Source: a bacterium (lineage in GTDB: Bacteria; Bacillota_I; Bacilli_A; RF39; UBA660). Taken from it: a DNA stretch of 64,000 nucleotides. The notes beneath the pieces were generated by a model. That model was not told the DNA's origin and searched no databases. It worked only from the letters and a program-made list of their open reading frames with translations. The translations under genes were made by a program, and so were the position numbers. Where the stretch lies: contig JAUNFS010000002.1 in the NCBI GenBank assembly GCA_030524925.1, forward strand, positions 2,202-66,201. The letters are read 5' to 3'. The stretch's first letter is position 1, and each line of letters begins with the position of its first letter. Of the stretch, positions 1-63,696 are shown piece after piece.

Positions 1-36
1 ATTAGGGGTTAATTACAAGAAAGGATTTATGATATT

Positions 37-558
37 ATGACGATTAATTATTCTGATCAAAAAGTTATAAAAAATAAGAAATCTATTTTTTTAGCTGGCC
101 CAACTCCAAGAAACGAAAATGTAAAGTCGTGGAGGATTGCTGCATGTCAAAAACTAAATGAATTAGGGTTTGATGGAGTTGTTTATGTTCCAGAGTATTC
201 GTCTTGGAAAACAAAAGCTGATTATAATGATCAAGTAATGTGGGAAAGAGATGCCTTAACAAATGCGACGGTTATTATGTTTTGGGTTCCTAGGGATTTA
301 TCTGATATGCCGGCTTTTACTACTAATGTGGAATTTGGATATTGGCTGCATTCTAGTAAAATAATATATGATAGACCGGATGATGCTAAAAAAATAAAAT
401 ATTTAGATTGGTTATATAAGGAAGATTATAATAAATTGCCAATAAACAATTTAGATGAACTTTTAAAAGAGGCGATAACACTAGCAAATAATTTATATGA
501 TGGCACAAATAACGAATTGTTGCCACTAAGTGAAAGAAAAATTTTAAAAAGTAAGTAA
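37..558 (+). CDS. nucleoside 2-deoxyribosyltransferase-like protein (tentative)
   Basis: 173-aa ORF. Motifs IFLAGP and TNVEFGYW resemble the Rossmann-like core and catalytic Glu region of the nucleoside deoxyribosyltransferase family. From memory only. Confidence 0.4.
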   Translation: MTINYSDQKVIKNKKSIFLAGPTPRNENVKSWRIAACQKLNELGFDGVVYVPEYSSWKTKADYNDQVMWERDALTNATVIMFWVPRDLSDMPAFTTNVEFGYWLHSSKIIYDRPDDAKKIKYLDWLYKEDYNKLPINNLDELLKEAITLANNLYDGTNNELLPLSERKILKSK

Positions 559-576
559 TATAGGAATTGATGATTT

Positions 577-1410
577 ATGATAATAAATGAAATAAAAACA
601 AATGATTATTTAACAAAGTCTAATTTACCAGCCAGTGATTATGTTATAAATCCGTATGTTGGCTGTTCCCATGGATGTAAGTATTGCTATGCATCATTTA
701 TGAAAAGATTTACGGGACATCAAGAGACTTGGGGAGACTTTATAGATATAAAAAGATGTGATAAAAAAATTAATTTGAAAAAAATATCTGGTAAAAGTGT
801 TTTTTTATCATCCGTTACTGATTGTTATAATGAATATGAAGAAAAATATGCTATAACAAGATCCATTTTAGAGCAGTTAGTAAAGTCTGATTGTAAATTA
901 TCTATTTCTACTAAGTCAAAATTAATATTAAGAGATATTGATTTATTGAAGAAAATAAAAGATGTAACAGTGTGTATGTCAGTTAATACTTTAGATGAGT
1001 CGTTTAAAGATGATATGGACAAGGCTAGTTCTATAAAAGATAGACTTGATGCATTAAAAAAATTACATGAAAATGGAATATATACAGTATTATTTATGTC
1101 ACCTATTTTTCCCTATATTACAAATTGGAAAGAAATAATAGAGATTTCAAGAGATTTTGTTGATGAGTTTTGGTTTGAAAATCTAAATTTAAGAGGTAGT
1201 TATAAGTATAGTATTTTAAATTACATTAAGGAAAAGTATAGTGATTTATTTTGTAAATATATTGATATATATGAGAATAAAAATGGTGATTATTGGAATG
1301 ATCTTTCTAAAAAAATAGAAGAGTATTGCGTGAATAATAATATAAAATATACTAATTTCTTTTATCATAAAGAGTTGGTAGATAAGAAGAAAGGAATAAA
1401 AAATGATTAA
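577..1410 (+). CDS. radical SAM protein (SplB / COG1533-like DNA-repair photolyase family)
   Basis: 277 aa. N-terminal INPYVGCSHGCKYCYA contains a CxxxCxxC radical-SAM cluster motif typical of spore-photoproduct-lyase-like proteins. Confidence 0.6.
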   Translation: MIINEIKTNDYLTKSNLPASDYVINPYVGCSHGCKYCYASFMKRFTGHQETWGDFIDIKRCDKKINLKKISGKSVFLSSVTDCYNEYEEKYAITRSILEQLVKSDCKLSISTKSKLILRDIDLLKKIKDVTVCMSVNTLDESFKDDMDKASSIKDRLDALKKLHENGIYTVLFMSPIFPYITNWKEIIEISRDFVDEFWFENLNLRGSYKYSILNYIKEKYSDLFCKYIDIYENKNGDYWNDLSKKIEEYCVNNNIKYTNFFYHKELVDKKKGIKND

Positions 1411-1747
1411 TATAGAAGATTTTTTGATAGAAGCTAAAAAACAAACTTATGCAAATGAAAATGTAGAAAAAGTATTAAGTGCCAGAAAAAATTCTAAGGA
1501 TTATGAATATAAAAGGGATAATATGGTGTATCATGATACATATTTTGGTGGTACTAATTTTATTGGCGAAGAAGTTGTTTATGTGGATGATAAAACATAT
1601 TGGGCTATGAATTATTATGGTGTAACTTTAGATGAGACATTAGGAGAAGAAGCTATGGATAATGCGTTACGTCCTGCTCTTATGAATGTTGGTGTAGATA
1701 AAGATATAATTCCTGTAAGAGGCCCTAAAGAGATGATAAATGGTTAG
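1403..1747 (+). CDS. conserved hypothetical protein; reading frame continues in-frame past a TAG stop to 1864
   Basis: 114-aa ORF ends at TAG 1745-1747. The same frame stays open for 38 more codons (YKYSFEVVGDINCFSGIEIIYKNDKKIYELKCHGGLVK) to TAG 1862-1864, with no start codon of its own. Confidence 0.4.
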   Translation: MINIEDFLIEAKKQTYANENVEKVLSARKNSKDYEYKRDNMVYHDTYFGGTNFIGEEVVYVDDKTYWAMNYYGVTLDETLGEEAMDNALRPALMNVGVDKDIIPVRGPKEMING

Positions 1748-1865
1748 TATAAGTATTCTTTTGAAGTAGTTGGTGACATTAACTGTTTTAGTGGAATTGA
1801 AATTATATATAAAAATGATAAGAAAATATATGAATTAAAATGCCATGGAGGGTTAGTTAAATAGC

Positions 1866-2648
1866 ATGGCTGAAAAAACTGACAAGGGGGCAGAGATGAA
1901 GATAATTGGAGATAAATCTACTAACAATATTTTTGAAAATATTAAACATATAGATGAATATGGAAACGAATATTGGTATGCTAGGGAATTGCAAAAAGTA
2001 TTGGAATACAAAGATTGGAGAAACTTTCAAAAAGTAATAGATAAAGCAAATTTATCAGCAAATAATAGTAATTCAACTGAAGAAGATTGGGTTGTTGAAA
2101 TCAACAAGCCAATAAAAACTGGTAAAGGCAAAGAAGAGTTTATAAAAGACTATAAATTATCTAGATATATATGTTATTTAATAGTGCAAAATGCAGATCC
2201 AAGTAAAGAAGTTGTGGCTCTTGGACAAACTTATTTTGCTATCCAAACAAGAAAACAAGAAATAACTGAGCAAGAATATACTTCTTTATCAGATGATGAA
2301 AAAAGGTTTTATCAAAGAAGACTAACAAAGCAAGGCAATTATACGTTACAAAAAGTTGCGTCTTCTGCTGGTGTTAAAAATATGGCTGAATTTCATAACG
2401 CGGGATATAAAGGTTTATATAATGGAGAAACCGCTGATGATATTTTTAAAAGAAAAAAATTAAGATATAGAGAAGATATTTTAGATAACATGAATGAAGA
2501 TGAGTTGGTCGCAAATTTGTTTAGAATAAATCAGACTAAACAAAGACTTATAAAAGATAATGTACAAGGAGAGAAAGAAGCAAATGCTGTACATTATGAA
2601 GTTGGTCAAAAAGTTAGAAAAGCGATCGCAGATATTGGTGGAAGATAA
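1866..2648 (+). CDS. dinD: DNA-damage-inducible protein D (Bro-N/KilA-N domain)
   Basis: Region EYGNEYWYARELQKVLEYKDWRNFQKVIDKA matches the conserved DinD N-terminus (…FWSARELAPLLGYRDWRNF…). Confidence 0.6.
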   Translation: MAEKTDKGAEMKIIGDKSTNNIFENIKHIDEYGNEYWYARELQKVLEYKDWRNFQKVIDKANLSANNSNSTEEDWVVEINKPIKTGKGKEEFIKDYKLSRYICYLIVQNADPSKEVVALGQTYFAIQTRKQEITEQEYTSLSDDEKRFYQRRLTKQGNYTLQKVASSAGVKNMAEFHNAGYKGLYNGETADDIFKRKKLRYREDILDNMNEDELVANLFRINQTKQRLIKDNVQGEKEANAVHYEVGQKVRKAIADIGGR

Positions 2649-2883
2649 TAAACTAATTATATATAAAAATAGTAATGGTGCTGAAGATAAAGCGTTAGAT
2701 AAAAAGTCAGTTACCGAGAAATGCTCGTTAACTGCCGATGATGGGGGAAATTACTCATAAACCTTTGTAAATAAAGAATTTTTTATTTATTTCTTTTTGC
2801 ATTTTATGGTTAAAAATAATTTGAATTATTAAAAACTTTGGGTAATTCCGATTGATGGAAAACTAAGATTTTAGATATAGGAG

Positions 2884-3909
2884 ATGATGAAAATGACAAA
2901 AGATTTAATTATCAGAAGTAGTAGTGCGGAATTCTTAATATTTGAAAGGCAAACACACGATAAAGGAATTCAAGTTAGATTTGAAGATGGTGATTTGTGG
3001 TTAACACAGAAAGCTATTGGAGAACTTTTTAATACAACTAGAAATAATATTACTATGCATATTAATGATATATATGATAGTTATGAATTAGAACAAAATT
3101 CAACTAGTAAGAAATTCTTACTAGTTCAAAATGAAGGTAATAGAGAAGTAAAGAGAAATGTACAATACTATAATTTAGATATGGTTATTTCTATTGGTTA
3201 TAAAGTAAATTCAGACAGAGCTATACAATTTAGAAGGTGGGCAACTTATATATTAAAAGAGTTTTCAAAAAAAGGGTATATAATTGATAAAAAGAGGATG
3301 GCAAATGGAGCGTTCTTTGACGAAGACTATTATGAGTCCTTGCTTGCAGAAATAAGAGAAATAAGATTATCAGAAAGGCGATTTTATCAGAAAGTTACTG
3401 ATATTTACGCAACAAGTGTAGATTATGATAAAAAGTCTCCTACAACAATTAAATTTTTTAAAAAGGTGCAGAATAAAATGCATTTTGCAATTTCTCATCA
3501 AACTGCAGCAGAAATAATATATAACAGATCTGACTCAGAAAAGGAATATATGGGTCTAACATCTTGGAAAAACTCTCCTAATGGGAAAATTTTAGAAACA
3601 GATGTAATAATAGCCAAAAACTATTTATCTAAAGAAGAGTTAGAAAGTTTAGAACTGATAGTATCCGCCTTTTTGGATTTAGCAGAAAATAGAGCAAAAA
3701 GACACATTCCAATGACAATGGAAGACTGGGCAATAAGAATTGATAAATTTTTACTTGCAGATGATTTAGATGTGTTAAAAGATGCTGGAAAAATATCACA
3801 TGAAATAGCTTGCGATAAGGCATTAACAGAATTTGAAAAATATAGAATTAAACAAGATAAATTATACAAATCAGATTTTGATTTATTGATAGAAGAAACA
3901 AGCAAATAA
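2884..3909 (+). CDS. RhuM family virulence protein
   Basis: 341 aa. N-terminal IIRSSSAEFLIFERQTHDKGIQVRFEDGDLWLTQKAIGELF is typical of RhuM / Fic-associated family proteins. Confidence 0.65.
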   Translation: MMKMTKDLIIRSSSAEFLIFERQTHDKGIQVRFEDGDLWLTQKAIGELFNTTRNNITMHINDIYDSYELEQNSTSKKFLLVQNEGNREVKRNVQYYNLDMVISIGYKVNSDRAIQFRRWATYILKEFSKKGYIIDKKRMANGAFFDEDYYESLLAEIREIRLSERRFYQKVTDIYATSVDYDKKSPTTIKFFKKVQNKMHFAISHQTAAEIIYNRSDSEKEYMGLTSWKNSPNGKILETDVIIAKNYLSKEELESLELIVSAFLDLAENRAKRHIPMTMEDWAIRIDKFLLADDLDVLKDAGKISHEIACDKALTEFEKYRIKQDKLYKSDFDLLIEETSK

Positions 3910-4070
3910 TAAAATGAAAGGGAGATTAGAAGTATGCTCAATTTAGAAAAAGTAAAAGAAGAATTAAAAAGCTAGAGATTTAATTATAAAAATAATATTC
4001 TACCAGGGCATAGTATTAATAAAGTAAAATGTATTTATATTGATAAATATAAAAATATTAAAATAGATTT

Positions 4071-4340
4071 TAAATAAACAAATAATAGAAAGAAGTGATT
4101 AAAATGGATATGTATCAAAAAAGAAAAATTAGAACAGAAAAGAAAAATGATGATAGCTCAAAAAGTTTTCCATCAGTTGGAATTAACTGGTAAGTGGGAA
4201 ATTATGAAAAAACACTATTAAACCCTTGAAAATAAAAGAAAAAATAAAATCTCTTTTTACATTTTAAACATATTTTTCCTTGAAAAGTGTTAAAAAAAAA
4301 TAAATGTGCAGGAGTTATGAAAAACAATGGAAAGGATGTG
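4071..4340 (+). repeat. copy 1 of a ~270-bp duplicated upstream module (second copy 6307-6575), containing a 29-codon ORF MDMYQKRKIRTEKKNDDSSKSFPSVGINW
   Basis: Direct comparison of the two segments shows ~90% nucleotide identity, including the small ORF with its RBS and a following MKKHY mini-ORF. Confidence 0.7.
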
Positions 4341-4344
4341 AATT

Positions 4345-4743
4345 ATGCTAGATAAAAACTTTAAAGATATTATTAGTAATATTAAAGAAGAAATTATAAA
4401 TACGCAAATTAAAACTATGCAAGAAGTCAATAGTAATTTAATTATGTTGTATTTTAAATTAGGGAAAATTGTTTCAGAAAACAAACAATATGGAAATAAT
4501 TTTACGAAGCAAGTATCAACAGAACTTAAATTAACTTTTCCTAATATGAAAGGCTTTTCTGAAAGAAATATAAGGTCAATGAGATTATTTTATGAAGAAT
4601 ATGTTGATGATAAAAAATGGCAACAACTTGTTGCCAAATTACCTTGGGGACATAATTTATTACTAATTGAAAAAATTAAAGATAAGGATATTAGAAAAAT
4701 ATATGCCGAAAATGCCATGTATAAAGCGTTAGGTATTGAGTAG
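4345..4743 (+). pseudogene. truncated N-terminal fragment of a YhcG-like (DUF1016) PDDEXK nuclease
   Basis: The 132-aa ORF aligns at ~55% identity to the first 135 residues of the full-length 339-aa paralog at 6582-7601, then terminates. Confidence 0.6.
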
Positions 4744-4755
4744 GAGGTAAGAATT

Positions 4756-5888
4756 ATGGCTAGAATAAGGAAAGATGAAGCATCTGGCTGGGATATATTA
4801 TTAGTTTTATTTTTCTTTGTATTTATAGCTTATTACTTAATAAAATGGGCTATTGAACTAATATCTATAATCATAGTTGGAATTACAAAGTTAGTAACTC
4901 GGATTTCTAATAAGATTCAAAAAAGGAGTAATGAAAAAATATTACTAAAAAACCATTAGTTGATAAAGAATTAAAAATTGAAGAAAGTTTAAAAACACCA
5001 ATAGAAATTAAAAAAGAAAAATTAGATATATTTGATAAAAGTATTTATGATAGTTTATTTCCAGTTCAAATAAGAAACAGAGGAGAAGTATATTATTATG
5101 AAGATAAAATCAAATATTTTAAGGAAAATGGTAATAATTATTCTTGTATTGTAAAAGGTAATGAAAATTATAATGTTAAACTTTCTATTGATGAAAATAA
5201 TAATATAATAAGTTCAGGTTGTACTTGCCCTTATTATTTAGATAAAGAACATAATTGTAAACACTTATATGCACTTTTATATAAAGTAAAATGTAGTGAA
5301 AATAAAGACAAAATTATAAAAGAAATAAATAATCAAATAAGTGGTATAAAAACAATGGTAAAAAATACTACTGACTATATAAATAAAAATAAATCTCATT
5401 TTTCATATTCTGCTATTGATGAGTTTAATGATTATTCGCAGCAATATATTTTGCAAACAATTTATTATGAAAAAAACTGCTCTGAAAAAGTTTTAGAAGA
5501 TACATTATTACAACATTTAGATAATTTGTTAAATATTACACTTGAATTGAAACAAAAAATTAAAAAAACATTAAATGAGGAAGATAGTGCACTAGATGTA
5601 ATTAATTCTATGCCGAAGCAAAAAAAAGAAAATAAGATTGGTTTTACAGATTTAATGGCGAGCATTGCTATAGCAAATGAGATTTTTAGTAAAGAAAATG
5701 ATGAGGAAGATGAACCAAAAAAAGAAAATCGTTCTCCGTATTCAGAAGAAGAAATGGATTATTACTGTTTAGAAGAATGGCAAAAAGATTTAGTAAGAGA
5801 AGGACGATTTGCACCTTGGAGTTTTCAAAAGAAGTCAACTTCTTCAGATGAACTTAGTGATAATCAATACTATAAGGATGATGAATAA
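4756..5888 (+). CDS. membrane-anchored SWIM zinc-finger protein, interrupted by a frameshift at an A6 run (4934-4939)
   Basis: ORF 4756-4959 has a strong RBS (AGGAGG) and one TM helix. The overlapping frame is open from 4935 to 5888 but has no ATG/GTG/TTG before 5355. The SWIM motif CTCPYYLDKEHNCKH (5217-5300) lies upstream of that first ATG. Adding one A to the A6 run would fuse the two frames. Confidence 0.5.
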
Positions 5889-6306
5889 TGATAAAGGTGT
5901 ATTATTGGTTAATTTTTTAAAAGAGGTAGGAATATTTTTTTATTATAACTTTATAAAAATTATGGTTTAAAATTAAATTTGAGTGAGTAAACAGGTGAGA
6001 TATACACCTTTTTATTTTATTTTTAGTGCAGAGGATATGTTTTTTGAAAATTTGATACACATTCATTAAGTACATTCCTGTTAGAGATAGCACATTATTA
6101 AAGATACTTCTGCACAACCACAGACACAAGCAATGGGTGTAGCACGGAGAGAATATCGGTGAAACGGAAGTTTGCAATATTGATTTAGCAATTCAATAGT
6201 TTGATGAAATCTCGTAATGCGAAGATAAATATTTTGAGGCACTAGACTTTATAAAAAGACAAAACAATGATATAATATCATCTAGTTAAAGGGCGTAATT
6301 AGAAAG

Positions 6307-6575
6307 TATTTTTTTAAATTAAACTAAATAGAAAGAAGTGATTAAAATGGATATGTATCAAAAAAGAAAAATTAGAGCAGAAAAGAAAAATGATGATAGC
6401 TCAAAAAGTTTTCCATCAGTTGGAATTAACTGGTAAGTGGGGAGTTATGAAAAAACACTATTGAACCCTTGAAAATAAAGAAAAAAATAAAATTTCTTTT
6501 TACATTTTAAGCATATTTATTCTTGAAAAATATTTGAAAAATTAATGTATAGAACATAAAAAAATAGAAAGGATG
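6307..6575 (+). repeat. copy 2 of the duplicated upstream module with small ORF MDMYQKRKIRAEKKNDDSSKSFPSVGINW
   Basis: ~90% identical to 4071-4340. Confidence 0.7.
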
Positions 6576-6581
6576 TGATTT

Positions 6582-7601
6582 ATGCTGAATAAAGATTTTA
6601 AAGATATTATTAGTAATATTAAAGACGAAATCAAAACTACACAGTATAAGGTTGCAGTACAAAGTAATATAAGTTTGATTTCAATGTATTTTAGACTTGG
6701 AAAAATTTTAAATGATAATTATAAATATGGGAACAGATTTATTGATGAAGTTTCAAAAGATTTAAAAATTGAATTTCCAAATTCAACAGGATTTTCTGTG
6801 AGAAATTTAAAATACATGAAAAAATTTTATTTAGAGTATAAAGATGATGAACTTATGCAACAGCTTGTTGCACAAGTTCCATGGGGACATAATATTGTAC
6901 TTATGGAAAAAATAAAAGAGAAAGAAGAAAGAAAAGTATATATTGAAGGTATTTTAAAAAATGGCTGGGGAAGGAATATGCTTAGCATTCAAATTGACAA
7001 TGGATATCATTTAAGAATAGGCGCTTCAAACAATAATTTTGAAAATACACTTCCGGCAATTGATAGCGATCTAGTTAAGTACACAATAAAAGATCCATAT
7101 ATATTTGATTTTTTAACATTAGAAAATGATTATAAAGAAAAAGAACTGGAAGTAGCAATGTTAAATAAGATTAAAGATGTATTGATAGAACTTGGGAAAG
7201 GATTTAGTTTTGTTGGTAATCAATATAAATTGTCAGTTGGAGAACAAGAGTTTTTTATAGATTTATTATTTTATCATTTGGAATTAAGAAGATATATAGT
7301 AGTTGAACTTAAAGCTAATGGTTTTAAGCCAGAATATGCAGGACAAATAGGTTTTTATGTAACAGCGGTAGATGAGCAATTAAAAAAAGAATATGATAAT
7401 CCAACTATAGGATTATTATTATGCCAAGATAAAGATAGATTAACAGTAGATTATTCTTTGAAGTCTATTAATGTTCCAATTGGAGTATCGTCGTTTGAAA
7501 TTGAAAAATATATACCGAAAGATATTTTAGATAAATTACCAACAGAAGAAGATATTAATCTACACTTAGAAATAGAAGAGAGAGGTGAAAAAAATGAGTG
7601 A
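6582..7601 (+). CDS. PDDEXK nuclease domain protein, YhcG-like (DUF1016)
   Basis: 339 aa. N-terminal KDFKDIISNIK…LPWGHN motif and C-terminal ELKANGFKPEYAGQIGFY nuclease core are typical of the YhcG family. Confidence 0.7.
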   Translation: MLNKDFKDIISNIKDEIKTTQYKVAVQSNISLISMYFRLGKILNDNYKYGNRFIDEVSKDLKIEFPNSTGFSVRNLKYMKKFYLEYKDDELMQQLVAQVPWGHNIVLMEKIKEKEERKVYIEGILKNGWGRNMLSIQIDNGYHLRIGASNNNFENTLPAIDSDLVKYTIKDPYIFDFLTLENDYKEKELEVAMLNKIKDVLIELGKGFSFVGNQYKLSVGEQEFFIDLLFYHLELRRYIVVELKANGFKPEYAGQIGFYVTAVDEQLKKEYDNPTIGLLLCQDKDRLTVDYSLKSINVPIGVSSFEIEKYIPKDILDKLPTEEDINLHLEIEERGEKNE

Positions 7602-13864: not shown

Positions 13865-13893
13865 TTGATATAAATATTAAAATGAATTATAAT
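13865..13893 (+). promoter_or_regulatory. sigma-A-type promoter for surface protein gene A
   Basis: TTGATA, 17-nt spacer, TATAAT. RBS AAGGAG is 9 nt upstream of the ATG at 13926. Confidence 0.5.
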
Positions 13894-13925: not shown

Positions 13926-15617
13926 ATGGATGAGAAAACAATTAATATTAATAAAAGAAAAATATATGTAACTTTACTAATAGTAGTTATTTGTTTAATA
14001 GGTGTATCTTATGCATTTTTTACACTATATTTAAGACAAAGTGAAAAAAATACTATTACATCTCTTAGCTGCTTTAGTACAACATTTACTGAAGAAACAA
14101 ATGCTATAACACTAGAAAAAACTTATGCAGTAACAGAGGATGAAGGAATGAGTTATAGTCCATTTACTTTTAAAATAAAAAATAACTGTACTGATACGAT
14201 ATATGCTTATATAACGATTGATAGTTTAAATGAAGGAACATCTACTAATTTAGATAGTTCTCATGTAAGATATAATTTAAGTACTAAAGGAACTACTGAT
14301 GGAACTAGTGCAACACTTAAACCATCAAGTACTAAAAAATTAGAAAATGGTCACAATGGCTATGTAATTAAAACTTTAGCATTAAGTAGTAACGAGGAAT
14401 TAGAATATGATTTAAGATTATGGGTAGATGAAAAGACTACTGCTTCTGAAGGTTTAAGTAAAACTTGGAGTGGACAGGTTGTTGTAGTTAGTGATGCTGA
14501 AGAGCCAAATATAGATTGGAATTATACTGGTCAAGGGACGCTTTTAGCAGCAATTAAAAATGGCAATACTGTGAGTGACCCTTTGACTGTTCCTGGATCT
14601 GCAGCATCAACTTCTACTGAGGCAGTTTTAGCAAGTACACAAGATGATTATGGAACATCATATTACTTTAGAGGAGCAGTGGAAAACAATTATGTAGAGT
14701 ATGCTAATATGTGTTGGAGAATTGTTAGAGTAACCGGCGATGGTTCTATAAAGGTAGTTTTATATAATTACAATGGATTGACTACTACAAACAATACTCC
14801 ATCAAGTAGTACGCCATGTAATGTAACAGGTAATGATTTAGCTTTTGCAAGATATGAGGGTGATACTTATACTTCTAAATTTAATTCAAGTTATACTGGT
14901 AATGCTTATGTAGGATTTATGTATGGTGCTTCTGGTGCTAGTTATGCAAAAGCACATGCTAATACTAATGCAAGTACAATATTAACTAATCTAAATAAAT
15001 GGTATACAAATGTACTTTCTAAGCAAGCAAATTTTAAGGACAGTCAGCTTGCAGATACAATATGGTGTAATGATAAGCGTGTAGTAACTGATGCTACGTT
15101 TAATCCTCGTAATTTGACTTTGGGAACAAATTATGGTTATGCAAGGAATGCAAATTATTATAGCGCCACTAAAAGACTAGTACAAGCATCTTCATTGAGC
15201 GCTGGTGGTACGGGGCCTACTTTAATATGTCCAAATGATAACAATGATGGAAAGTTATCTAAGTTTACTGTAAGTGACACAACTTATGGCAATGGAGCAT
15301 TAAGTAGCTATGCAAAAGTAGGGTTGCTTACTGCAGATGAAATAGCATTTGCTGGTGGAGCTGTTTATACAAAATCAACATATTATATAAAGGGTAATGT
15401 TAATTCAAGTGATTGGTGGGCTTTGTCTCCGAGCGGTTACCTTGGCGTCGGCGCTTTCGTTTGGGTTGTTGTTGGTGCTGGCGGCGGCCTCATTGAACGT
15501 GGATTTGTTGACGACGGCTACGGCGTGCGCCCCTCTCTATCGCTTCAGTCGGGAGTCAAAATATCAAGTAGTGGGATTGGCAGTGCTACTAATCCTTATA
15601 AAGTTGTAATGGAGTAA
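13926..15617 (+). CDS. membrane-anchored Ser/Thr/Asn-rich surface protein, paralog family member A
   Basis: N-terminal signal-anchor helix. Shares motifs with ORF 49437-50927: NxCW[RK][IM]VR.T, AYVG[FY]MYG, and a C-terminal W.LSP…G[VA]RP[SA][LI][ST]L…DPY module. Contains an anomalous GC-rich segment at 15419-15570. Confidence 0.55.
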   Translation: MDEKTININKRKIYVTLLIVVICLIGVSYAFFTLYLRQSEKNTITSLSCFSTTFTEETNAITLEKTYAVTEDEGMSYSPFTFKIKNNCTDTIYAYITIDSLNEGTSTNLDSSHVRYNLSTKGTTDGTSATLKPSSTKKLENGHNGYVIKTLALSSNEELEYDLRLWVDEKTTASEGLSKTWSGQVVVVSDAEEPNIDWNYTGQGTLLAAIKNGNTVSDPLTVPGSAASTSTEAVLASTQDDYGTSYYFRGAVENNYVEYANMCWRIVRVTGDGSIKVVLYNYNGLTTTNNTPSSSTPCNVTGNDLAFARYEGDTYTSKFNSSYTGNAYVGFMYGASGASYAKAHANTNASTILTNLNKWYTNVLSKQANFKDSQLADTIWCNDKRVVTDATFNPRNLTLGTNYGYARNANYYSATKRLVQASSLSAGGTGPTLICPNDNNDGKLSKFTVSDTTYGNGALSSYAKVGLLTADEIAFAGGAVYTKSTYYIKGNVNSSDWWALSPSGYLGVGAFVWVVVGAGGGLIERGFVDDGYGVRPSLSLQSGVKISSSGIGSATNPYKVVME

Positions 15618-33253: not shown

Positions 33254-33502
33254 AATAATTCTCCTTTTTAAAACACATAAAAACCTAGAAAATAGTCTTA
33301 GTGATAAATTCCCGCGCACTCGCAAGGTGGGCATCACATAGAAGGCTTTAGGAGTCTAGATTAAATCTAGCTTTCTACACCACCTCTAATTAGATTCCCA
33401 ATATTCACCATTGACGGATTTATATTTAACCATCTTCTAGGTACTTTAATTATATCATAGATTTTTAATTTGTTAGCAAAAATCACATAATTTTACATTT
33501 TT

Positions 33503-33916
33503 TTATTGCATTGTAACTTTGTACGGATTAGTGGCAGTGCCATCACCAACTGATATTTTTATTTCTGAATTAAGTGATAAAGAGGGACGTACATTAACAT
33601 TGCCATTAGATGTATTATTGCCCTAGTGATGAATCTGGAAGCTTATATGTCTCAGCGTCTGCTACCCATAATCTTAAACTATAGTTATTTGTTATACCTG
33701 CTTCTATAGTTCCAATTTCTATTACTCCACTATCATCTGAAACGAACTTTGTTGTAGCATTATTAAGTGAATATCTAATATATTTGTGTGGTAATAAGTT
33801 ACTTGTATAACTTGGGTTATTATCTAGTTTAATAGTATATTTATATGGTACTGTTCCTGTGTTTGCTATAGAAAATGTATATAAATTATTAGTTTGACTT
33901 TTAGCAGCAGTATACT
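33503..33916 (-). pseudogene. internally deleted remnant of the surface-protein paralog family
   Basis: Minus-strand frames give YTFSIANTGTVPYKYTIKLDNN…KYIRYSLNN…YSLRLWVADAETYKLPDSSLGQ*, which is like the N-terminal third of gene A. A different frame gives NVNVRPSLSLNSEIKISVGDGTATNPYKVTMQ*, almost identical to the gene A C-terminus. There is no start codon and stops flank the fragments. Confidence 0.65.
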
Positions 33917-49124: not shown

Positions 49125-49134
49125 ATTTATTCCT

Positions 49135-49350
49135 TCTTTCTAAATAAAAAACACTAGGTAGATGTAAGGACGAGTTATAACCCGCGGTGCCACCTTACTT
49201 TACTTAGTGTACTCTTTTGTTATCGTAACGAGATAAACGTTTGTCTTTATGAAGACTGTTCCAAGTTTATAATATATTTTGGCATTTTCACCAGTTAGCC
49301 ATCTCTTTTAAATATACGTGCTATAAACTCAAGTTCTTCAAACAAATTTA
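49135..49350 (-). promoter_or_regulatory. T-box riboswitch leader of the hisS-asnS-gatCAB operon
   Basis: Minus-strand AAGGTGGCACCGCGGG matches the conserved T-box sequence (AGGGTGGNACCGCG). It is followed by a terminator hairpin and T-run just upstream of the hisS RBS. An AGAGA K-turn-like element lies in the 5' part. Confidence 0.7.
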
Positions 49351-49357
49351 TAGTTCT

Positions 49358-49386
49358 ATTTTACTTAAAAAAGATGTTGTTGTCAA
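49358..49386 (-). promoter_or_regulatory. promoter of the T-box/hisS operon
   Basis: Minus strand: TTGACA, 17-nt spacer, TAAAAT. Confidence 0.5.
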
Positions 49387-49436
49387 CGGGTTATGATACA
49401 ACTTCGTACTGGTTTATTTGAAATAAGATTTAGTTA

Positions 49437-50927
49437 TTAATCGGGGAGCGCAACTGTGTATGGATCTTCAATTTCACCAGTTCCTCCTGTTATTAGGATA
49501 TTTTGTTTTAAGGTTATAGCTGGACGGGCTCCATAATCAGTAATCGTTAGGATAGCGGATAGTTCACCATAGCGCTGACCTCGAATGCCAGCATCGTCGT
49601 AGGAGTAGCGGTAAGGGGACATCAACCAATATTTACCATTATTATTTAAATAATTAGTACTTGAACCATAAAAGGCAAGTTTTGCTTCTTTAGTAGTTAA
49701 TAAACCCACAGGATAGTCTAAAGCATTATTTCCATATCCTAAAGTTCCTCCAGAATCTACTTTCAATGTAAATTGATCTTCCTTATCTTGACAGGTTAAT
49801 CTTAAATTTTTTTCATCAAAATCATTAAAGTGTAAATCTGTTGTTATACTTCCGCCACTTGGGTTCCATGCGCTTGCAGATAAATTTGTTATGTATCTAT
49901 TATTACAATATATTGCATTTTCTAAATAATTCGTTATATTTGTCATATTTGAACTATACCAGTTATCTATTACTTTTTTTATATTACTATTTGTTGTATT
50001 GTAATTTAACATTTCGTCTATGGCATTTTCTATTTTTTTACCATTCTTTAGTGTTATATAATATGCATATTCTACGCTACCACCCGGCAAAGTGCCCACA
50101 TAACTTATATAATATACAGTTGAACACCTTGTACTTGTACTTAAACATGTATAATGTTTATTTCTTAGTTTACTATTTATATTTGCTACTGCTACACTTT
50201 CTGCATTACTTAATGTATATGTTGTTCCATTCCATGTTACATTACTTCCATAATAATATTTTCCAAATGATGATACTATTTTTTCAGAAGTTGCATACAC
50301 AGTTCCATACATATATCCTACATACGCTAGAGACCCATTTCTATTTGAATTATATCTTGTTCCACTTGCTTCCAAATAAACATCTGTTCCTGTGTTATTG
50401 CATTTTGTATCTTCTTTATATAATCCATTATAAATAAGCTTTACTCCATCTGTTTCTGTTGTTCTTACCATTTTCCAACAATAATTATTTAATACTAAAT
50501 TATTATTTGTTATATTACCTGCATAATAATATACATCTTTACCATTTTCATCTGTTGTTTTTTGTACTCCATTATTTTTAGCATAGTCAGCTAGAACTTT
50601 ATCGTATACTGTTGAGCTCTTGGTGAAATCAACATTACATTTTGTTTTATTTTGAGTGATACTAGTTACGTTAAATACCCATTTACTTCCGTTCCATACG
50701 GCTGTGCCACTTCCTTTTGAACAGGTAACTACTCCAATATAGCTGGATGTAGTGGGAAACTTATCTGATTCTTTACCGTCTATGGTTATTGCCAAAAGTG
50801 CTTCTTCTTTTTCGTTCCACTTAGCATCTACTAAAGTTTCGGTTTCGTAATTTTTTAAAAATATGACACCAGTTATTACTACAAATACACTCAAAAGAAG
50901 AATGAATGATACATTTTTATTTTTCAT
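49437..50927 (-). CDS. membrane-anchored Asn/Thr/Tyr-rich surface protein, paralog family member B
   Basis: N-terminal signal anchor. Shares motifs with gene A (NYCWKMVRTT, AYVGYMYG, YWLMSP…YGARPAITL…DPYTV). GGTGG RBS. Confidence 0.55.
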   Translation of the reverse strand: MKNKNVSFILLLSVFVVITGVIFLKNYETETLVDAKWNEKEEALLAITIDGKESDKFPTTSSYIGVVTCSKGSGTAVWNGSKWVFNVTSITQNKTKCNVDFTKSSTVYDKVLADYAKNNGVQKTTDENGKDVYYYAGNITNNNLVLNNYCWKMVRTTETDGVKLIYNGLYKEDTKCNNTGTDVYLEASGTRYNSNRNGSLAYVGYMYGTVYATSEKIVSSFGKYYYGSNVTWNGTTYTLSNAESVAVANINSKLRNKHYTCLSTSTRCSTVYYISYVGTLPGGSVEYAYYITLKNGKKIENAIDEMLNYNTTNSNIKKVIDNWYSSNMTNITNYLENAIYCNNRYITNLSASAWNPSGGSITTDLHFNDFDEKNLRLTCQDKEDQFTLKVDSGGTLGYGNNALDYPVGLLTTKEAKLAFYGSSTNYLNNNGKYWLMSPYRYSYDDAGIRGQRYGELSAILTITDYGARPAITLKQNILITGGTGEIEDPYTVALPD

Positions 50928-50950: not shown

Positions 50951-50980
50951 ATTATATAACAACCCCCCCCCGTGTCAACT
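50951..50980 (-). promoter_or_regulatory. promoter of surface protein gene B with a G9 homopolymer in the -35/-10 spacer
   Basis: Minus strand reads AGTTGACA-C-GGGGGGGGG-TTGTTA-TATAAT. TTGACA and TATAAT are separated by 16 nt, of which 9 are a G run. TATAAT lies ~30 nt upstream of the RBS. Confidence 0.6.
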
Positions 50981-56580: not shown

Positions 56581-59500
56581 TTATTTTTTAAATGTACTTA
56601 AGTTTTTTTCTTGGCGAAGATGTTTTTTTATTTCGGCTTTCATATCATTAAAAATTTGCTCAAAATTAGAATTAGCGACTTGTTCTTTTTCTCTTATGAT
56701 TGAGCTTTCAATTGGTATTTGCTCACCAGTAGGTTCTGCTAAAACTATTCTTATACTTTTACCAGTAAAACCATCAAAAGCAGTTATGTTAACGATATAT
56801 TGTCTTAAAAAACTATTTAGAGCTGTTTTATCATTTAAGATTTTGGAATTTTCATAATCATTAAATGTGATAGTTACGTCCCTACTATGGTTAACTCTAA
56901 AGATAGTAAAACTTTTTAGTTCGGTAGGTATTTCCACGGTGAGATTTGAAGAATTTGAAAAATGGTTCAGAATATATAGATGATCTATTTCTTTATTTAG
57001 AATAATTTTATTTACTGCAGAAATATCCCCATTGAAGCTTGTAGGTCCATCTAATATGATTTCACTTAGTCCGTTTGGTAGTGTTATAGTGCTAGGCTTA
57101 TATTTTCTTAATTTATATATTGTGATTTGTTCCACTGGGTTATTATATGCTGGTTTCATTCTAAAAACTTTTATTCCTGGAAGAATAAACTCTTTTTCAT
57201 TTGGTACTAATGACGGAGATAATACATTATAGAAATTGTATATTTTATATAAAGATTCTCCTAACACGTCAAGCCGTTTTTCTTGTGGAACGCTATCAAT
57301 GAGTTTTAATAATGTTAACAACGGAATTTCATCACAAAAGTGTTCATCGTAAGTGATTTCTTTTAGTAATTTTGTACAATCTTGATTTTTGATTTTGATA
57401 TTTTGAAAAAGTTCAATAATTCTTTCTAGTGGATTGGGATAATTTAGTGCGTTATAGAATTCTAATAACATCTGATTATTTAGTATATCATCTTGAATGT
57501 TATTTTCATCTTTAGTAAAGAATAAACTTTTATAAGCTACCTCTAGTCTTAGTGCGTCATTATGAGTTATTGCTTTGCTTGTAAGTTTCTTTTTTAATAG
57601 TTCTTCTTGATCAATATTCCCATATGAAAGAGTTTGATTATTTGATATTTTGTTTTTCATTATTTCTTTGATGATTTCAACTGTTTGAGGTGATAAATCA
57701 TTTAATGAAGTGATACCACTTTCATAACTGGCTATTGCATAATTAAAATACTCTTCTACTATACTTTTAAATTTATTTTTATCTATTAGTCCTAGACTTA
57801 CTAAGATTTCTAATTTTTGGAGATGTTTTTTGACGTCATCTTTAGTTGTTTGATTATTTTGAGATTTTTGAAAAGACACTTTATATTCACTAATAATTGC
57901 AGAAGGCAGATTGATGCTAGATGCTTTTTTAACAATATTTTGATAAAGATCGTAAATGTCTTTTGTTTTATATGTTAGTTTTATTTTAGGATTTATTTCT
58001 ATTCCAAGTGCCTTAGCATAATTTATTAGTTTATTGTATATTTCTTTAAGTTTGCCTCTAAACATTTTATAAATTTTAAAAATATAGTCTTTGTTTGAGT
58101 AATCTATTGCTCGTTCAAGTTCTTTGCGTGGTATCTCCTTAGTATCAATAGTAAAATTTAAAACTTCAACTGGATAATTAAAGTGAAATTTTGATTGCTG
58201 AAGAAATAATGTTTCGGTCATATCACATTCTTTTAGAAGTTCTATGAAGCCTTCTTGAGTTTCAAGAACTTCACAATCAAGGTAATTATTAAATACCCAA
58301 TCATGTGGTGGGTGTGATAAACTAATTTTTTTGATTGTTGAAGGAAATTCAATGGTGTCAAATTGCATTTCTCTTGTGGAAATGAATTCTTTTAATCCTT
58401 CGTTAAATTTTAGCTTAAGGTCAAGATTTACTAGTTTATCAAATGTCACTTCATAATACATTTTGGAAAATGCATCTAGATTAATTTTATTTAAAGAGCT
58501 TGGAAATTCAATTGGTGTATTATCGTATTTTAATCTTTCTATAAATGGGTTAAAAATCTCGCTGTAGTAGATTAAAACTGGTGTATGTAATAACGTCGCA
58601 TAATCGTCACTAATATATTTGACACCGTTTGGTATTTCTCTATTAGTTTTGGTGTTTAAAATTGTTTTAAAGATTAATGAATAAAGCTGAACTAAAGCGT
58701 AAAGTTTTTGGTTGCTTTTTATAAACTGAGCAGTATTAGATTTCATAAATACTATTACCATTTCTTGTTTGGTTTCATTTTTTGGCACTTCTACTTCATT
58801 TGATAGAAAACTCATAAAAGTAGATAATGGTATTTGATCTGAAAAATCAAAGGTTTTTAAGTCGTTAATATATACATAAATATTTCTACTTTCTACTAGG
58901 TAATTATCAAAGAAACTTGTAATAAGATCCGGGGATGAAATGCTAGCTAAAAGTGCAAGTTTAAATGGTGTATTAAAAATGTCACTAGCACTAAATTCGC
59001 CACTATTATTTGTAATTATTTGTTTTAGAAGGCGAACTAGTCTCTCATATTCATTTACTCGAATAGTTCCATTATTTTCTTCTGATGTGCTTTTATAAGA
59101 GTCATAGATTTTATCTGCTGGGTCTTTTGATATTACATTAATTAGCTTGAGTAGAATGGTCTCTAAGCTTGCTTGCTCTTCTTTGAAGAATGAATCAAAT
59201 GATATTCCATTATAGTCATTACTTATTGCAAGATTACATAAGATGTTAAATTTGGTATTAAATAATTTTTCTTTTAAGTTATCTATTTTTTGATACCCTA
59301 ATTCTTCTATACCGATACATTTAGCAATTAGTTTGTCTAGTTTTTCTAGTTGTTCTTTTGGTGGAAGATTAGATGATAGAAGTTTTGTTAAATCTTCACT
59401 TATAGTGTTTGCCAGGTGACTATCGTTATATATTTCATCTTCTATTTGAACTGTGGCTTTAGCAATGCTAACTGGAGTTATTTCATTTAAGCTAATGTCA

Positions 59501-60117
59501 AACCCTTCAATAATTTTTTCGTACCTTTTTAGAGTAACTTCGTTTTCTTCTTTAGGCAGGTTTAGTGATTTTATCCTATCTTTTAAAGTGGTTATTTCTA
59601 GTAAGTTACCAGTTATGGCATTTTGCATGCTGATAATTTGGATTTCAATTTGACTTATTAAGTTCTTTATTGTATTTTTCTTATTCAGAGACATGAATGG
59701 ATTTCTTTTTAGAATATTTTCTAAAGCTGCTTTTTTAAGAAATAAGTTATTGATATGGTTTACGATAAGTGTGTGATAAAGCTTTTGTTTTTCTTCTAAA
59801 ATAGATAAATAAGTGTGTTCTTTTTTATCACTTTGATTTATGGGATCTAGAATAAAGTCTATTTCTAAGTTAATTTTTGTTAGTTTGTTTATATAGTGAT
59901 GTAAATATTTATCATCTTCTAGTTTTAAATCTAGTGATGTTAAGGTTTTATTTTGGTTAAGCTTAGCTAGATATACTCTTTCGTAAGTTTTAATTTCATT
60001 TTTATTTTCATGATAAAAATCTTCATTTGGTTTATAAATGAAGACTTTACCGGTTGTTATAAAATTGGTATTTGTATTAATTTTTTCTTTTTTAAATAGT
60101 TTACTAAATAGCCCCAT
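56581..60117 (-). CDS. giant cytoplasmic-type protein (1178 aa), tandem paralog A
   Basis: No signal peptide. Coiled-coil-rich N-terminal third. C-terminal half has beta-rich segments with possible BspA-like LRR_5 units (TIEFPSTIKKIS, ITLPNGLSEII). AAGGAGA RBS. Starts 48 bp after paralog B. Confidence 0.5.
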   Translation of the reverse strand: MGLFSKLFKKEKINTNTNFITTGKVFIYKPNEDFYHENKNEIKTYERVYLAKLNQNKTLTSLDLKLEDDKYLHHYINKLTKINLEIDFILDPINQSDKKEHTYLSILEEKQKLYHTLIVNHINNLFLKKAALENILKRNPFMSLNKKNTIKNLISQIEIQIISMQNAITGNLLEITTLKDRIKSLNLPKEENEVTLKRYEKIIEGFDISLNEITPVSIAKATVQIEDEIYNDSHLANTISEDLTKLLSSNLPPKEQLEKLDKLIAKCIGIEELGYQKIDNLKEKLFNTKFNILCNLAISNDYNGISFDSFFKEEQASLETILLKLINVISKDPADKIYDSYKSTSEENNGTIRVNEYERLVRLLKQIITNNSGEFSASDIFNTPFKLALLASISSPDLITSFFDNYLVESRNIYVYINDLKTFDFSDQIPLSTFMSFLSNEVEVPKNETKQEMVIVFMKSNTAQFIKSNQKLYALVQLYSLIFKTILNTKTNREIPNGVKYISDDYATLLHTPVLIYYSEIFNPFIERLKYDNTPIEFPSSLNKINLDAFSKMYYEVTFDKLVNLDLKLKFNEGLKEFISTREMQFDTIEFPSTIKKISLSHPPHDWVFNNYLDCEVLETQEGFIELLKECDMTETLFLQQSKFHFNYPVEVLNFTIDTKEIPRKELERAIDYSNKDYIFKIYKMFRGKLKEIYNKLINYAKALGIEINPKIKLTYKTKDIYDLYQNIVKKASSINLPSAIISEYKVSFQKSQNNQTTKDDVKKHLQKLEILVSLGLIDKNKFKSIVEEYFNYAIASYESGITSLNDLSPQTVEIIKEIMKNKISNNQTLSYGNIDQEELLKKKLTSKAITHNDALRLEVAYKSLFFTKDENNIQDDILNNQMLLEFYNALNYPNPLERIIELFQNIKIKNQDCTKLLKEITYDEHFCDEIPLLTLLKLIDSVPQEKRLDVLGESLYKIYNFYNVLSPSLVPNEKEFILPGIKVFRMKPAYNNPVEQITIYKLRKYKPSTITLPNGLSEIILDGPTSFNGDISAVNKIILNKEIDHLYILNHFSNSSNLTVEIPTELKSFTIFRVNHSRDVTITFNDYENSKILNDKTALNSFLRQYIVNITAFDGFTGKSIRIVLAEPTGEQIPIESSIIREKEQVANSNFEQIFNDMKAEIKKHLRQEKNLSTFKK
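59130..60117 (-). repeat. ~1-kb 5' segment of paralog A, near-identical to 62710-63696 in paralog B
   Basis: Long stretches are identical (for example 59920-60070 vs 63500-63650). The protein N-termini are >90% identical for ~325 aa, after which the proteins diverge. Confidence 0.75.
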
Positions 60118-63100: not shown

Positions 63101-63696
63101 TATCTGCTTAAAGTAACTTGGTTTTCCTCTTTTGGTAAATCAAGGGATGCTATCCTATCTTTTAAAGTGGTTATTTCTAGTAAATTACCAGTTATGGCAT
63201 TTTGCATGCTAATTATTTGAATCTCTATTTGGCTGATTAAATTTTTAATAGTGTTCTTTTTGTTCATAGACATGAATGGGTTTCTTTTTAAAATATTTTC
63301 TAAAGCTGATTGTTTTAGAAATAAGTTATTGATATGGTTTACGATTAAAGCATGATAAAGTTTTTGCTTTTCTTCTAAAATAGATAAATAAGTGTGTTCT
63401 TTTTTATCACTTTGATTTATGGGATCTAGAATAAAGTCTATTTCTAAGTTAATTTTTGTTAGTTTGTTTATATAGTGATGTAAATATTTATCATCTTCTA
63501 GTTTTAAATCTAGTGATGTTAAGGTTTTATTTTGGTTAAGCTTAGCTAGATATACTCTTTCGTAAGTTTTAATTTCATTTTTATTTTCATGATAAAAATC
63601 TTCATTTGGTTTATAAATGAAGACTTTACCGGTTGTTATAAAATTGGTATTTGTACTAATTTTTTCTTTTTTAAATAGTTTACTAAATAGCCCCAT
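60166..63696 (-). CDS. giant cytoplasmic-type protein (1176 aa), tandem paralog B
   Basis: Same architecture as paralog A. Lies 15 bp downstream of the lepA stop. Confidence 0.5.
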   Translation of the reverse strand: MGLFSKLFKKEKISTNTNFITTGKVFIYKPNEDFYHENKNEIKTYERVYLAKLNQNKTLTSLDLKLEDDKYLHHYINKLTKINLEIDFILDPINQSDKKEHTYLSILEEKQKLYHALIVNHINNLFLKQSALENILKRNPFMSMNKKNTIKNLISQIEIQIISMQNAITGNLLEITTLKDRIASLDLPKEENQVTLSRYKKIIEGFDINLSEITLVTIAKATVQIEDEIYNDSHLANTISEDLTKLLSSNLPPKETLTKLDKLIAKCIGIEELGYQKIDNLKEKLFKAKFNILCNLAISNDYNGISFDSFFKEEQASLETILLNLINVISKDPSKEIYNAYDKAAKQNASEMNSVIYNDLIKILKEIITDKNGDFSAKDIFNKPFKLALLARISEPNQLISYFNNHLVKSSELFNYISKNDYIEYTENLPLSSFLKILSNELLFKEPNNLDKFTTLNKDEKEEDIIKLGFEKISKNQKLRSLIKLYELLYRIIRISGTYRQMPEGVKNIRTSDKISSANIFYLYTKLYSCIKTYPDTPTLCCPKSLESIDISLYRLPGFLSYSYDFIKSQLTIQLQEGTKKFISLSNKYSMPVQLSLVQLPSTITEISGFQANMEFNNYLNCDALSSKEKFMKLFDGIPWHDFIKYGCGIEFKHHLPIFDFTMYAHEFEELIGYDKETGTKLKDKIYKLFNSKLEEVYKRLSELANILELPLDLNSKTSEFSIEDIKNLYNKIIKSASNLTNEIITSSNNLDNTNETKDNKLKLLKKAEVLNELGLMSSNTFKAVTKNVIISILKNYERGTQIINELSISVVNTTLKENILNAMDEELSSASKNYLDEASQESLIETGLITKKIDPNAVKKIKSKINIIFLKSSLSPKTKVEVIYSPILLELLSALIKPTPIANFIKSLNTITISKKAYRVLLGNIADSYYFCNKVPVLTVLKLLNEVPKKDLKPFEGETILNLLDLYNELKAYLPVDEEEIIPPGIKDFIFNNSCKYLYNYSAKLFNKSKTKSIKFFPGLDYFNALKNENSFDNGNPFERISKITLTDDVGFISLSKPRTGNSIFKTTIVIPPNIKSHDIIAPGNNISLEFIDYQNSEILNSPHILSCIAHSFLNEFSAQSEIVLKQEGAEPVVITRQDIEAKAKFNPDKKYQQQILIEEIKKHLNKSNTKSASL
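62710..63696 (-). repeat. ~1-kb 5' segment of paralog B, near-identical to 59130-60117
   Basis: See the matching repeat entry at 59130-60117. Confidence 0.75.

Follow-up and report, generated by a model that had tools for sequence, protein, structure and literature searches.

Cellular targets of diversity-generating retroelements (DGRs) with a C-type-lectin (C-lec) fold include TvpA and its paralogs in Treponema denticola and LdtA in Legionella, the prototype of such variable proteins being Mtd of Bordetella phage BPP-1. Homopolymer phase variation in promoter spacers is established for the poly-G/C tracts of Neisseria meningitidis porA and opc and for the poly-A tract of Mycoplasma hyorhinis vlp, and Mycoplasma maintains the variable surface lipoprotein families Vlp, Vsa and Vpma. 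We analyzed a 64,000-nucleotide stretch (the window) of contig JAUNFS010000002.1 from assembly GCA_030524925.1 (Bacilli_A; RF39; UBA660), a metagenome-assembled genome (MAG), and the two related predicted surface-protein genes that it carries: gene A (13926-15617, plus strand, 563 aa) and gene B (49437-50927, minus strand, 496 aa), both intact open reading frames (ORFs). DUF6273, a C-type-lectin-like domain with a variable region (VR) at its C-terminus, is a DGR target in gut phages, as seen in the tentaclins, the Mtd-like targets of nd4/nd12, Faecalibacterium prophages and Toutatisvirus (PMC10743442, PMC11792537, bioRxiv 10.1101/2024.10.15.618418). A and B are best explained, and we hold this to be likely, as members of a DUF6273-like surface family with a DGR-diversified tip and, in a subset of genes that includes B, poly-G control of expression.

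The paralogy of A and B, part of the original prediction made for this window, was borne out by formal alignment. BLASTP returned two co-linear segments, A233-342/B120-216 (35% identity, E = 3e-11) and A346-562/B310-494 (25% identity, E = 3e-8), which delimit a common core of about 330 aa (A233-562, B120-494). All five motifs named beforehand were found in both proteins (NMCWRIVR/NYCWKMVR, AYVGFMYG/AYVGYMYG, WALSP/WLMSP, GVRPSLSL/GARPAITL and NPY/DPY). The supposed shared signal-anchor N-terminus held in part: each protein starts with a hydrophobic segment, but the two do not align, and there is no homology between the N-terminal regions of the two proteins.

The VR of gene A comprises the 40 codons from WWALSP to GVRP (15414..15533, plus strand), as delimited by composition and by comparison with template repeats (TRs). 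It has 61.7% GC, 7.5% A and 42.5% C-ending (NNC) codons, versus 32%, 36% and 4.6% in the remainder of the gene, and is the extreme 120 nt of the window in both high GC (62% versus 29%) and low A. The VR of gene B, 36 codons from YWLMSP to GARP (49521..49631, minus strand), is co-linear with the TR beside a B-type homolog in L208 (L numbers denote the related loci that were retrieved). Its GC, A and NNC contents are 50.5%, 20.7% and 32%, compared with 29.5%, 42.1% and 9.2% outside it. The genome otherwise avoids C-ending codons. Across 32 family genes the VR segment averaged 50% GC and 33% NNC codons versus 32% and 8% for the rest. Variable positions in A-type alignments sit between invariant WW.LSP, A.VW.V.G, L and GVRPSLSL, and B-type alignments have the same pattern of hypervariable positions within an invariant framework. 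The 'W.LSP…G[VA]RP' module thus reads as the scaffold that carries a DGR variable region within a DUF6273-like domain.

TR/VR pairs were sought by self-comparison of all fetched loci. Mismatches fell at template adenines in 20 of 20 cases in L013 (122 nt; same UMGS1372 assembly as L005, the conspecific locus discussed below), in 22 of 22 in L051 (108 nt) and in 16 of 17 in L208 (116 nt), where the neighboring gene is of B type and shares 61% identity with B. Downstream of each pair come a bAvd-like gene and a gene for a reverse transcriptase (RT; RVT_1) that has YMDD and IGNMTSQ motifs, so that complete cassettes accompany homologs in three other genomes, one of them conspecific. The templates translate to Asn-rich strings, WWALSPNDFNGNNANVWDVNGNNSNLDNDNVNNNNGARP and WLLSPNNFNNNNANVRNVNNGSLNNNNVNNTNGARP. 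In the cassettes of the source species a small ORF that matches MutS domain I (MutS_I; E = 3e-6) lies between TR and avd, in L013 (1842-2270), L207 (319-675) and L210 (653-1009), and some related RTs are fused to MutS_I (P0462, P0500); this ORF may encode an accessory factor.

Gene A itself carries the adenine signature. Over the first 78 nt of its VR, mismatches to TR13, the conspecific template, occupy 20 of 21 adenine sites versus 6 of 57 other sites (p = 2e-12). Against TR210, with a one-codon gap allowed, the figures are 29 of 34 and 12 of 83 (p = 4e-13), and the last 12 nt of the VR (GGCGTGCGCCCC) match the 3' end of TR210 (GGCGTGCGTCCC) in all but one position (11 of 12). Comparison of the window with L005 shows the VR of A to differ at 13 of 20 TR-adenine sites versus 12 of 58 others. 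TR210 comes from L210, a contig with exactly the RT MDO4341627.1 and apparently of the same strain as the window. This protein, recorded at NCBI as 'MAG: RNA-directed DNA polymerase [bacterium]', belongs to the same 90% cluster as the RT beside the homologs. Because its accession falls within the range of the MAG's family proteins (MDO4341213-MDO4341840), the window's own genome probably encodes the DGR on another, 27-kb contig, as judged from accession numbering. The strong compositional signal argues that A was last rewritten recently.

The locus of gene A is mosaic at its 3' end. L005 ('uncultured Tenericutes bacterium UMGS1372') is syntenic with it, TopA and RnfC being 98.8% and 98.1% identical. 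At the nucleotide level the flanking DNA and the initial ~500 nt of gene A are 93-100% identical between the two; between ~14430 and 15604, where L005 has a 312-nt insertion, identity drops to 65-86%, and it recovers to 99% at the gene A stop codon. Where the N-domain is 93-97% identical to that of A, which we took to identify positional orthologs, identity falls to ~85% in the core and to 36-70% over the final 93 aa. The cores of paralogs whose N-domains are unrelated resemble that of A just as closely (up to 90%). Since orthologs keep the N-domain while paralogs with unrelated N-domains share the core, the N-domain marks the locus, with a core homogenized or exchanged family-wide and a hypervariable tip.

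A and B would then be distant members of an N-terminally anchored or secreted surface-protein family of uncultured low-GC gut Bacilli. The ~25 codons between 'W.LSP' and 'G[VA]RP' would be written by adenine-directed mutagenic retrohoming from an Asn-rich TR. The retroelement, with the order TR, MutS_I-like ORF, Avd and RT, lies outside the window; in the conspecific genome it adjoins another paralog. Duplication may have enlarged the family, its 3' 'core + VR' part being exchanged between alleles or paralogs. Slipped-strand mispairing, at promoter tracts of G7-G9 or at G10 tracts in the 5' coding sequence (CDS), would switch or tune expression. The main engine of sequence variation appears to be the retroelement rather than paralog switching. 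What the analysis demonstrates is the homology, the compositional and adenine-specific signature, genuine TR/VR/Avd/RT cassettes at homologs and the conservation of the G tracts. We infer that A and/or B are currently being rewritten, that the G tracts switch and that the proteins bind ligands at the cell surface. Diversification of a ligand or receptor interaction is at least as likely a role as the antigenic variation originally proposed.

A and B are remote relatives of the phage targets. Pfam and NCBIfam scans of both proteins gave no useful match, and NCBI records each as a 'hypothetical protein', as expected from the suggestion that the family is poorly annotated. Both fall below the gathering score of DUF6273 (PF19789; 23.5 bits), with no match even at E <= 1. 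PF19789 was nevertheless matched by 10 of 78 close homologs (best 27 bits; model positions 77-172, A residues ~447-544), and giant relatives reached 1e-13 and 51.6 bits. Foldseek comparison of the B model with predicted viral structures (BFVD) gave a DUF6273 phage protein as top match (E = 1.9e-7, probability 1.0), and 7 of the 17 top matches were DUF6273-annotated entries; TM-scores were low (0.2-0.25), so the similarity is local. Because homologs and giants match PF19789 while A and B have no Pfam match, the two are remote DUF6273 relatives and, by the curated threshold, not formal members. The family core is a divergent, expanded DUF6273 branch, and the family is not truly unknown.

Shared with the phage systems are the domain family itself (by weak Pfam matches and structure search), a VR at the domain C-terminus, an Asn(AAC)-rich template, Avd and RT in the cassette, remote or second targets, and targets that persist where a DGR is absent. 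The present family differs in being chromosomal among housekeeping genes, with N-terminal membrane or signal segments and 6-8 or more dispersed copies per small genome, some with poly-G promoters. Its domain is also about twice the length of the Pfam model, contains large insertions and has four cysteines that never vary; A and B themselves score below threshold. With TvpA, LdtA and Mtd it has in common a presumably surface-exposed ligand-binding protein, a VR at the extreme C-terminus on an invariant scaffold, adenine-specific mutagenesis and several paralogous targets per genome. In contrast, neither sequence searches nor Foldseek linked it to C-lec DGR proteins of solved structure. Unlike TvpA and LdtA, the present proteins are not lipoproteins, and most paralogs are inexact matches to a known TR.

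Several observations weigh against the reading of A and B as live DGR targets with a lectin-like tip. No TR was detected in the window by repeat finding plus an adenine-tolerant scan, and tblastn found neither RT nor Avd there. Relative to its own-strain TR, gene A has one extra codon and 12 mismatches at sites other than adenines, and the VRs of the compared A-type paralogs of this MAG are 37, 38 and 40 aa long versus 39 for the TR. Within UMGS1372, the cis target has 0 non-adenine mismatches to TR13 and two other paralogs have 7 and 11, the latter being the ortholog of A (11 of 82 sites). The 3' half of the VR of B is partly eroded towards AT, as judged by codon comparison with TR208, and no B-type TR is known for the source species. 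The lectin fold, one of the folds considered in the original prediction and represented by solved proteins such as Mtd, TvpA and FGE, was not reproduced: Foldseek of the B model against the PDB gave nothing significant (best E 0.04), and a profile search of PDB sequences was without match.

Retrohoming would reset non-adenine and length differences, so the dispersed copies, including A and B, may have ceased to be targets or may be served by a template not seen here. On the former account, both VRs are DGR-derived but no longer rewritten, variation now comes from duplication, recombination between paralogs or alleles, indels and drift, and the paralog next to the cassette is the sole active target. 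We give this alternative slightly less than an even chance. Besides the mismatches and lengths above, it is favored by fully decayed composition signatures in L032, L024, L054 and L202, and by between-strain divergence that spans the whole 3' 1.2 kb, beyond the VR. Against it, a segment of 62% GC and 7.5% A should erode fast in a 29% GC genome, yet that of A is a compositional extreme; its between-strain differences are enriched at TR-adenine sites above the allele background; its 3' end retains the 11-of-12 match to the own-strain TR; and the fragmented MAG could hold a second TR or DGR.

Expression control was then considered. In the gene B promoter, originally proposed to be phase-variable, a homopolymeric tract was confirmed, G9 at 50963..50971 (minus strand; C9 on the plus strand). 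It is a candidate slipped-strand switch within the 16-nt spacer of the promoter TTGACA-c-G9-ttgtta-TATAAT (50951..50978, minus strand; 12 of 12 consensus positions matched). This is the sole G or C run of six or more across the 64-kb window, where by our own estimate ~0.003 runs of at least 9 are expected from base composition. Related loci totalling 443 kb contained 19 runs of at least 7, versus about one expected on the same kind of estimate. Fourteen of these lie 44-68 nt upstream of a family gene start on the sense strand, and three more ~220 nt upstream of family genes (L064, L067, L072). The common cassette reads '…attaacTTGACAy-G7-9-…TATAAT…tagaaa…tagg…ATG'. A G tract of at least 6 was present within 140 nt upstream of 13 of the 68 family genes with a complete 5' end; there is none upstream of gene A or its ortholog. 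Such G-tract features are typical of contingency loci, and the G9 tract of gene B would on this basis act as an expression switch.

A G10 tract also occurs inside the 5' CDS of the B-type genes in L208 and L209 (5992-6001 in each). As assembled, the ATG-initiated signal peptide MMKKIDFRGGG… is out of frame with the main ORF, and G9 would restore the frame, which looks like translational phase variation within the family. L202 and L203 each carry two tandem B-type genes with their own G9 promoters, and a 354-nt block of promoter and 5' CDS occurs twice (508-861 and 2158-2511; 90% identity between the copies), as if the promoter cassette had been duplicated along with the signal-anchor region. 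A second tract type, 'gttcgtcaG10-11ta(g)taaatta', was seen in L064 (1688-1697), L067 (1660-1669) and L072 (1665-1675), and L078 has a G11 tract in a different context (68-78), 58 nt upstream of a family gene. A metagenome pattern scan with TTGACAC-N6-13-TTGTTATATAAT was unspecific, with at least four relevant loci among the matches listed. An Illumina poly-G artefact was rejected as a source of the tract: it is an internal run of 9 nt that always occupies the same place in the promoter, and assemblies from many independent studies contain it.

The G tract could instead be a conserved promoter element, either a regulator site or a fixed-length spacer, rather than a hypermutable switch. The cassette was found 29 times upstream of family genes in other genomes, representing about 20 distinct promoters (10 of the 29 are two promoters sampled in L202-L206), with tracts of G6 to G9. 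Despite these differing tract lengths the spacer is 16 nt in 23 of the 29 (about 14 of the 20 distinct promoters), G8 and G9 being compensated by the flanks. No same-locus tract-length polymorphism was seen, one G9 promoter being G9 in 5 of 5 independent samples at consensus level. These points favor a fixed element over a switch. The remaining spacers, however, are off-length (17 nt in two, 15 in two, 14 in one and 13 in one), and interrupted, 'locked' tracts occur with 17-nt spacers: aggtgggggc in L200 and L201, which hold the closest B homologs (90% and 85% identical, at a different locus), and GGGGGGGagg in L007. Pure G8-G9 is kept across paralogs only 25-60% identical in protein, in a 29% GC genome; 17 of the 19 runs of at least 7 fall within ~230 nt upstream on the sense strand, the usual hallmark of contingency loci; and the 5'-CDS G10 of L208 and L209 puts the ATG out of frame. 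We regard a fixed element as unlikely, though by no means negligible.

The promoter resembles those of porA, opc and vlp in placing a homopolymer between -35 and -10 in a multigene surface family, with the tract setting the spacer length. It differs in that switching is here predicted from the promoters, that the consensus spacer is 16 nt rather than 17, that the tract is one of G although the genome, of Firmicute type, has 29% GC, and that the gene it precedes also has a DGR-type VR. Parallels with Vlp, Vsa and Vpma are a small low-GC genome, multi-copy variable surface proteins, decaying copies and simple-repeat switches. Unlike those families, the present one lacks a lipobox, tandem-repeat ectodomains and a site-specific invertase, and unlike Mycoplasma, a related organism has sortase pili and so is probably cell-walled.

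The A/B family is thus a cellular variant of two known themes, DGR targets and homopolymer phase variation, with their possible coupling on one dispersed family. In the fullest form of this coupling, which we put forward tentatively, one DGR rewrites the tips of several surface proteins in trans, poly-G selects the copies expressed and the 3' cassette is shuffled. No literature description of a combined DGR and contingency-locus system was found, and nothing relevant on phase variation or DGRs in the source lineage. If the dispersed copies are live targets, one retroelement would diversify many adhesin-like proteins while slippage sorts their expression, a compact strategy, if true, against host IgA, phages or changing glycan ligands. 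A 'hypothetical protein' family of more than 12,000 clusters becomes a testable system, with its hypervariable tip, template and RT identified and candidate switches mapped to the base, in an uncultured gut lineage whose surface biology is almost blank. For annotation, an island rich in GC and NNC codons at a gene's 3' end can, in an AT-rich genome, point to a DGR target even if the retroelement lies on another contig.

In line with the original prediction of an antigenic-variation-type system, diversity could come from divergent paralogs switched by promoter slippage alone, without a retroelement. A multi-copy family, a decaying copy and poly-G promoters are all present, and the window itself has no DGR part. 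This view is nevertheless largely refuted by the TR/VR pairs, with their adenine-specific mismatches to TRs (p 1e-8 to 1e-13), together with the NNC codon bias and the complete DGR cassettes beside A-type and B-type homologs. Moreover, the tract of at least 6 precedes only 13 of 68 family genes, and not gene A. We now consider it very improbable. Least probable of all is an origin as prophage receptor-binding proteins rather than cellular surface proteins: although DUF6273 and DGRs are best known from gut phages, A, B and the decayed copy all sit among housekeeping genes with no phage genes seen next to them, all members have an N-terminal membrane or signal segment, and the gene A locus is syntenic in a conspecific genome.

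The multi-copy nature of the family, as originally proposed, was confirmed. At least six paralogs are named in the source MAG (A, B, Q4C44_01580, _02125, _03240 and _03745), and some related MAGs carry 6-8 or more copies, many at contig ends. A search of species-representative genomes gave 543 confirmed stretches, of which 79 loci were kept, nearly all in MAGs of gut 'Tenericutes', Bacilli or Erysipelotrichaceae. When a profile was run against 1.84 billion cluster representatives (50% identity clusters), 12,511 clusters matched with E <= 1e-3, and 3,436 with E <= 1e-30. Among them are giants that reach 4,905 aa and have as many as 22 C-terminal modules, some with the VWA and Listeria-Bacteroides repeat domains typical of Gram-positive adhesins. 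Exact-sequence look-ups found neither A nor B on record, and PDB sequence searches with gene A, an N-domain profile and a B-family profile gave nothing significant. A paper on the ThomasA IgA protease was rejected as a functional lead: it mentions a DUF6273 N-terminal domain, left out of the solved structure and given no function.

Gene A (MDO4341213.1 / Q4C44_00520, a 100% identical match) lies between topA and rnfC. Its promoter-like site (13865..13893, plus strand), TTGATA-17 nt-TATAAT as read from the sequence, has no homopolymeric tract and a putative function. The N-terminus (13926..14060, plus strand; aa 1-45) combines a basic region and a hydrophobic helix, modeled by AlphaFold2 as helix 3-41, and from its sequence would serve as a signal anchor or else as a signal peptide of the cleavable, TasA/SipW-like kind. 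The motif G-[VLI]-[ST]-[YF]-A-[YFW]-F ends A-type N-termini family-wide (68 homolog N-termini compared), which we take to resemble SipW/TasA-type signal peptides. The lipobox [LVI][ASTVI][GAS]C is not conserved in A, B or the homolog N-termini.

A beta-sandwich follows (14061..14510, plus strand; aa 46-195), 93-97% identical among positional orthologs. It is the best part (pLDDT 85-90) of a moderate AlphaFold2 model (mean pLDDT 69.6). Foldseek matched the A model to the TasA-like Pyrobaculum bundling pilin 7ueg (E = 7.7e-4, probability 1.0), the PDB matches being otherwise generic beta-sandwich noise. Peptidase_M73 (PF12389) matched 3 of 31 N-domains weakly (best E 0.0046, below the curated threshold); gene A itself had no match. 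A-type members are therefore like TasA/camelysin (Peptidase_M73) and archaeal bundling pilins in the …[ST]-[YF]-A-[YFW]-F end followed by a beta-sandwich. Unlike TasA/camelysin, they are not known to form fibres, and B-type members lack the N-terminal beta-sandwich. The conserved core of A, the divergent, expanded DUF6273-like domain, covers 14538..15617 (plus strand; aa 205-563) and contains four cysteines invariant in the alignment (C263, C298, C381 and C435 in gene A numbering).

Gene B (MDO4341242.1 / Q4C44_00670) is flanked by a nifU-like gene and hisS. It encodes a transmembrane anchor (aa 1-28), a small beta domain (aa 33-103) of ~70 aa versus the 150-aa beta-sandwich of A, and the DUF6273-like core (aa 105-496), all in a confident AlphaFold2 model (mean pLDDT 85, pTM 0.82). 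The leader between gene B and hisS (49125-49436, minus strand) holds a promoter-like TTGACA-17-TAAAAT at 49386-49358 and a T-box-like 'GGTGGCACCGCGGG'; Rfam gave no T-box there at the gathering threshold.

Two homolog loci carry pilus-related features. A family member in L071 (1928-3457) has a type IV prepilin-like N-terminus (MNKKGFTLVELLAVIVIL…) and adjoins a topA homolog (72% identical), near the syntenic position of gene A in another species. In L208 a sortase-dependent pilus cluster (1-5852; a VWA tip protein, SpaA-type pilins and two sortases) lies directly upstream of the DGR-targeted B-type gene. This organism is probably walled because of the cluster, and the family may be linked to pilus biology.

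One decaying copy was correctly foreseen in the window. The remnant (33503-33914, minus strand), between a helicase-like gene and the 6S RNA gene, lacks a start codon and is split into two pieces that lie in different frames. Piece 1 (33615..33914, minus strand; 99 codons and a stop) is an N-domain fragment; it aligns co-linearly with the N-terminal beta-sandwich region (residues ~72-177) in 114 A-like proteins, at 28% identity and E = 3e-4. Piece 2 (33503..33622, minus strand), in another frame, keeps the last 39 aa, with ~10 VR codons and VRPSLSL…NPYKVTMQ*; its identity to A-like C-termini reaches 81% (E = 4e-13). A deletion of about 345 codons separates the two pieces. The remnant is thus a frameshifted, internally deleted, decayed A-type copy. 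Of the features ascribed to it, the internal deletion and the C-terminal module were found, whereas the signal anchor and the NxCW and AYVG motifs are absent. Its surviving VR codons (33560-33622, minus strand) are Asn/AAT-rich and template-like (GNNTSNGNVN) and start exactly at the deletion junction; that aberrant retrohoming caused the deletion is pure speculation. The remnant was rejected as a TR, since it runs on into a normal C-terminus (…SLSL…NPYKVTMQ*) and neither RT nor Avd is nearby.

Directly downstream of the remnant, 6S RNA (ssrS; 33278-33446, minus strand) was identified by Rfam RF00013 (48.6 bits, E = 1e-6). The called GTG-start ORF of a ThiF-family gene overlaps this RNA gene with its 5' end, the real start of the ThiF-family gene being probably further in. 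Elsewhere in the window, 56581-60117 and 60166-63696 (minus strand) are tandem paralogs of 1178 and 1176 aa on which Pfam is silent; 300-nt stretches of the pair are 87% identical at a spacing of 3579 nt. A 239-nt upstream region and gene start are duplicated at 90% identity at 4060-4743 and 6303-7601 (plus strand), just downstream of a RhuM-family gene (2884-3909). The first copy encodes a DUF1016 N-terminal domain only (132 aa), and the second an intact YhcG-type PDDEXK nuclease (339 aa).

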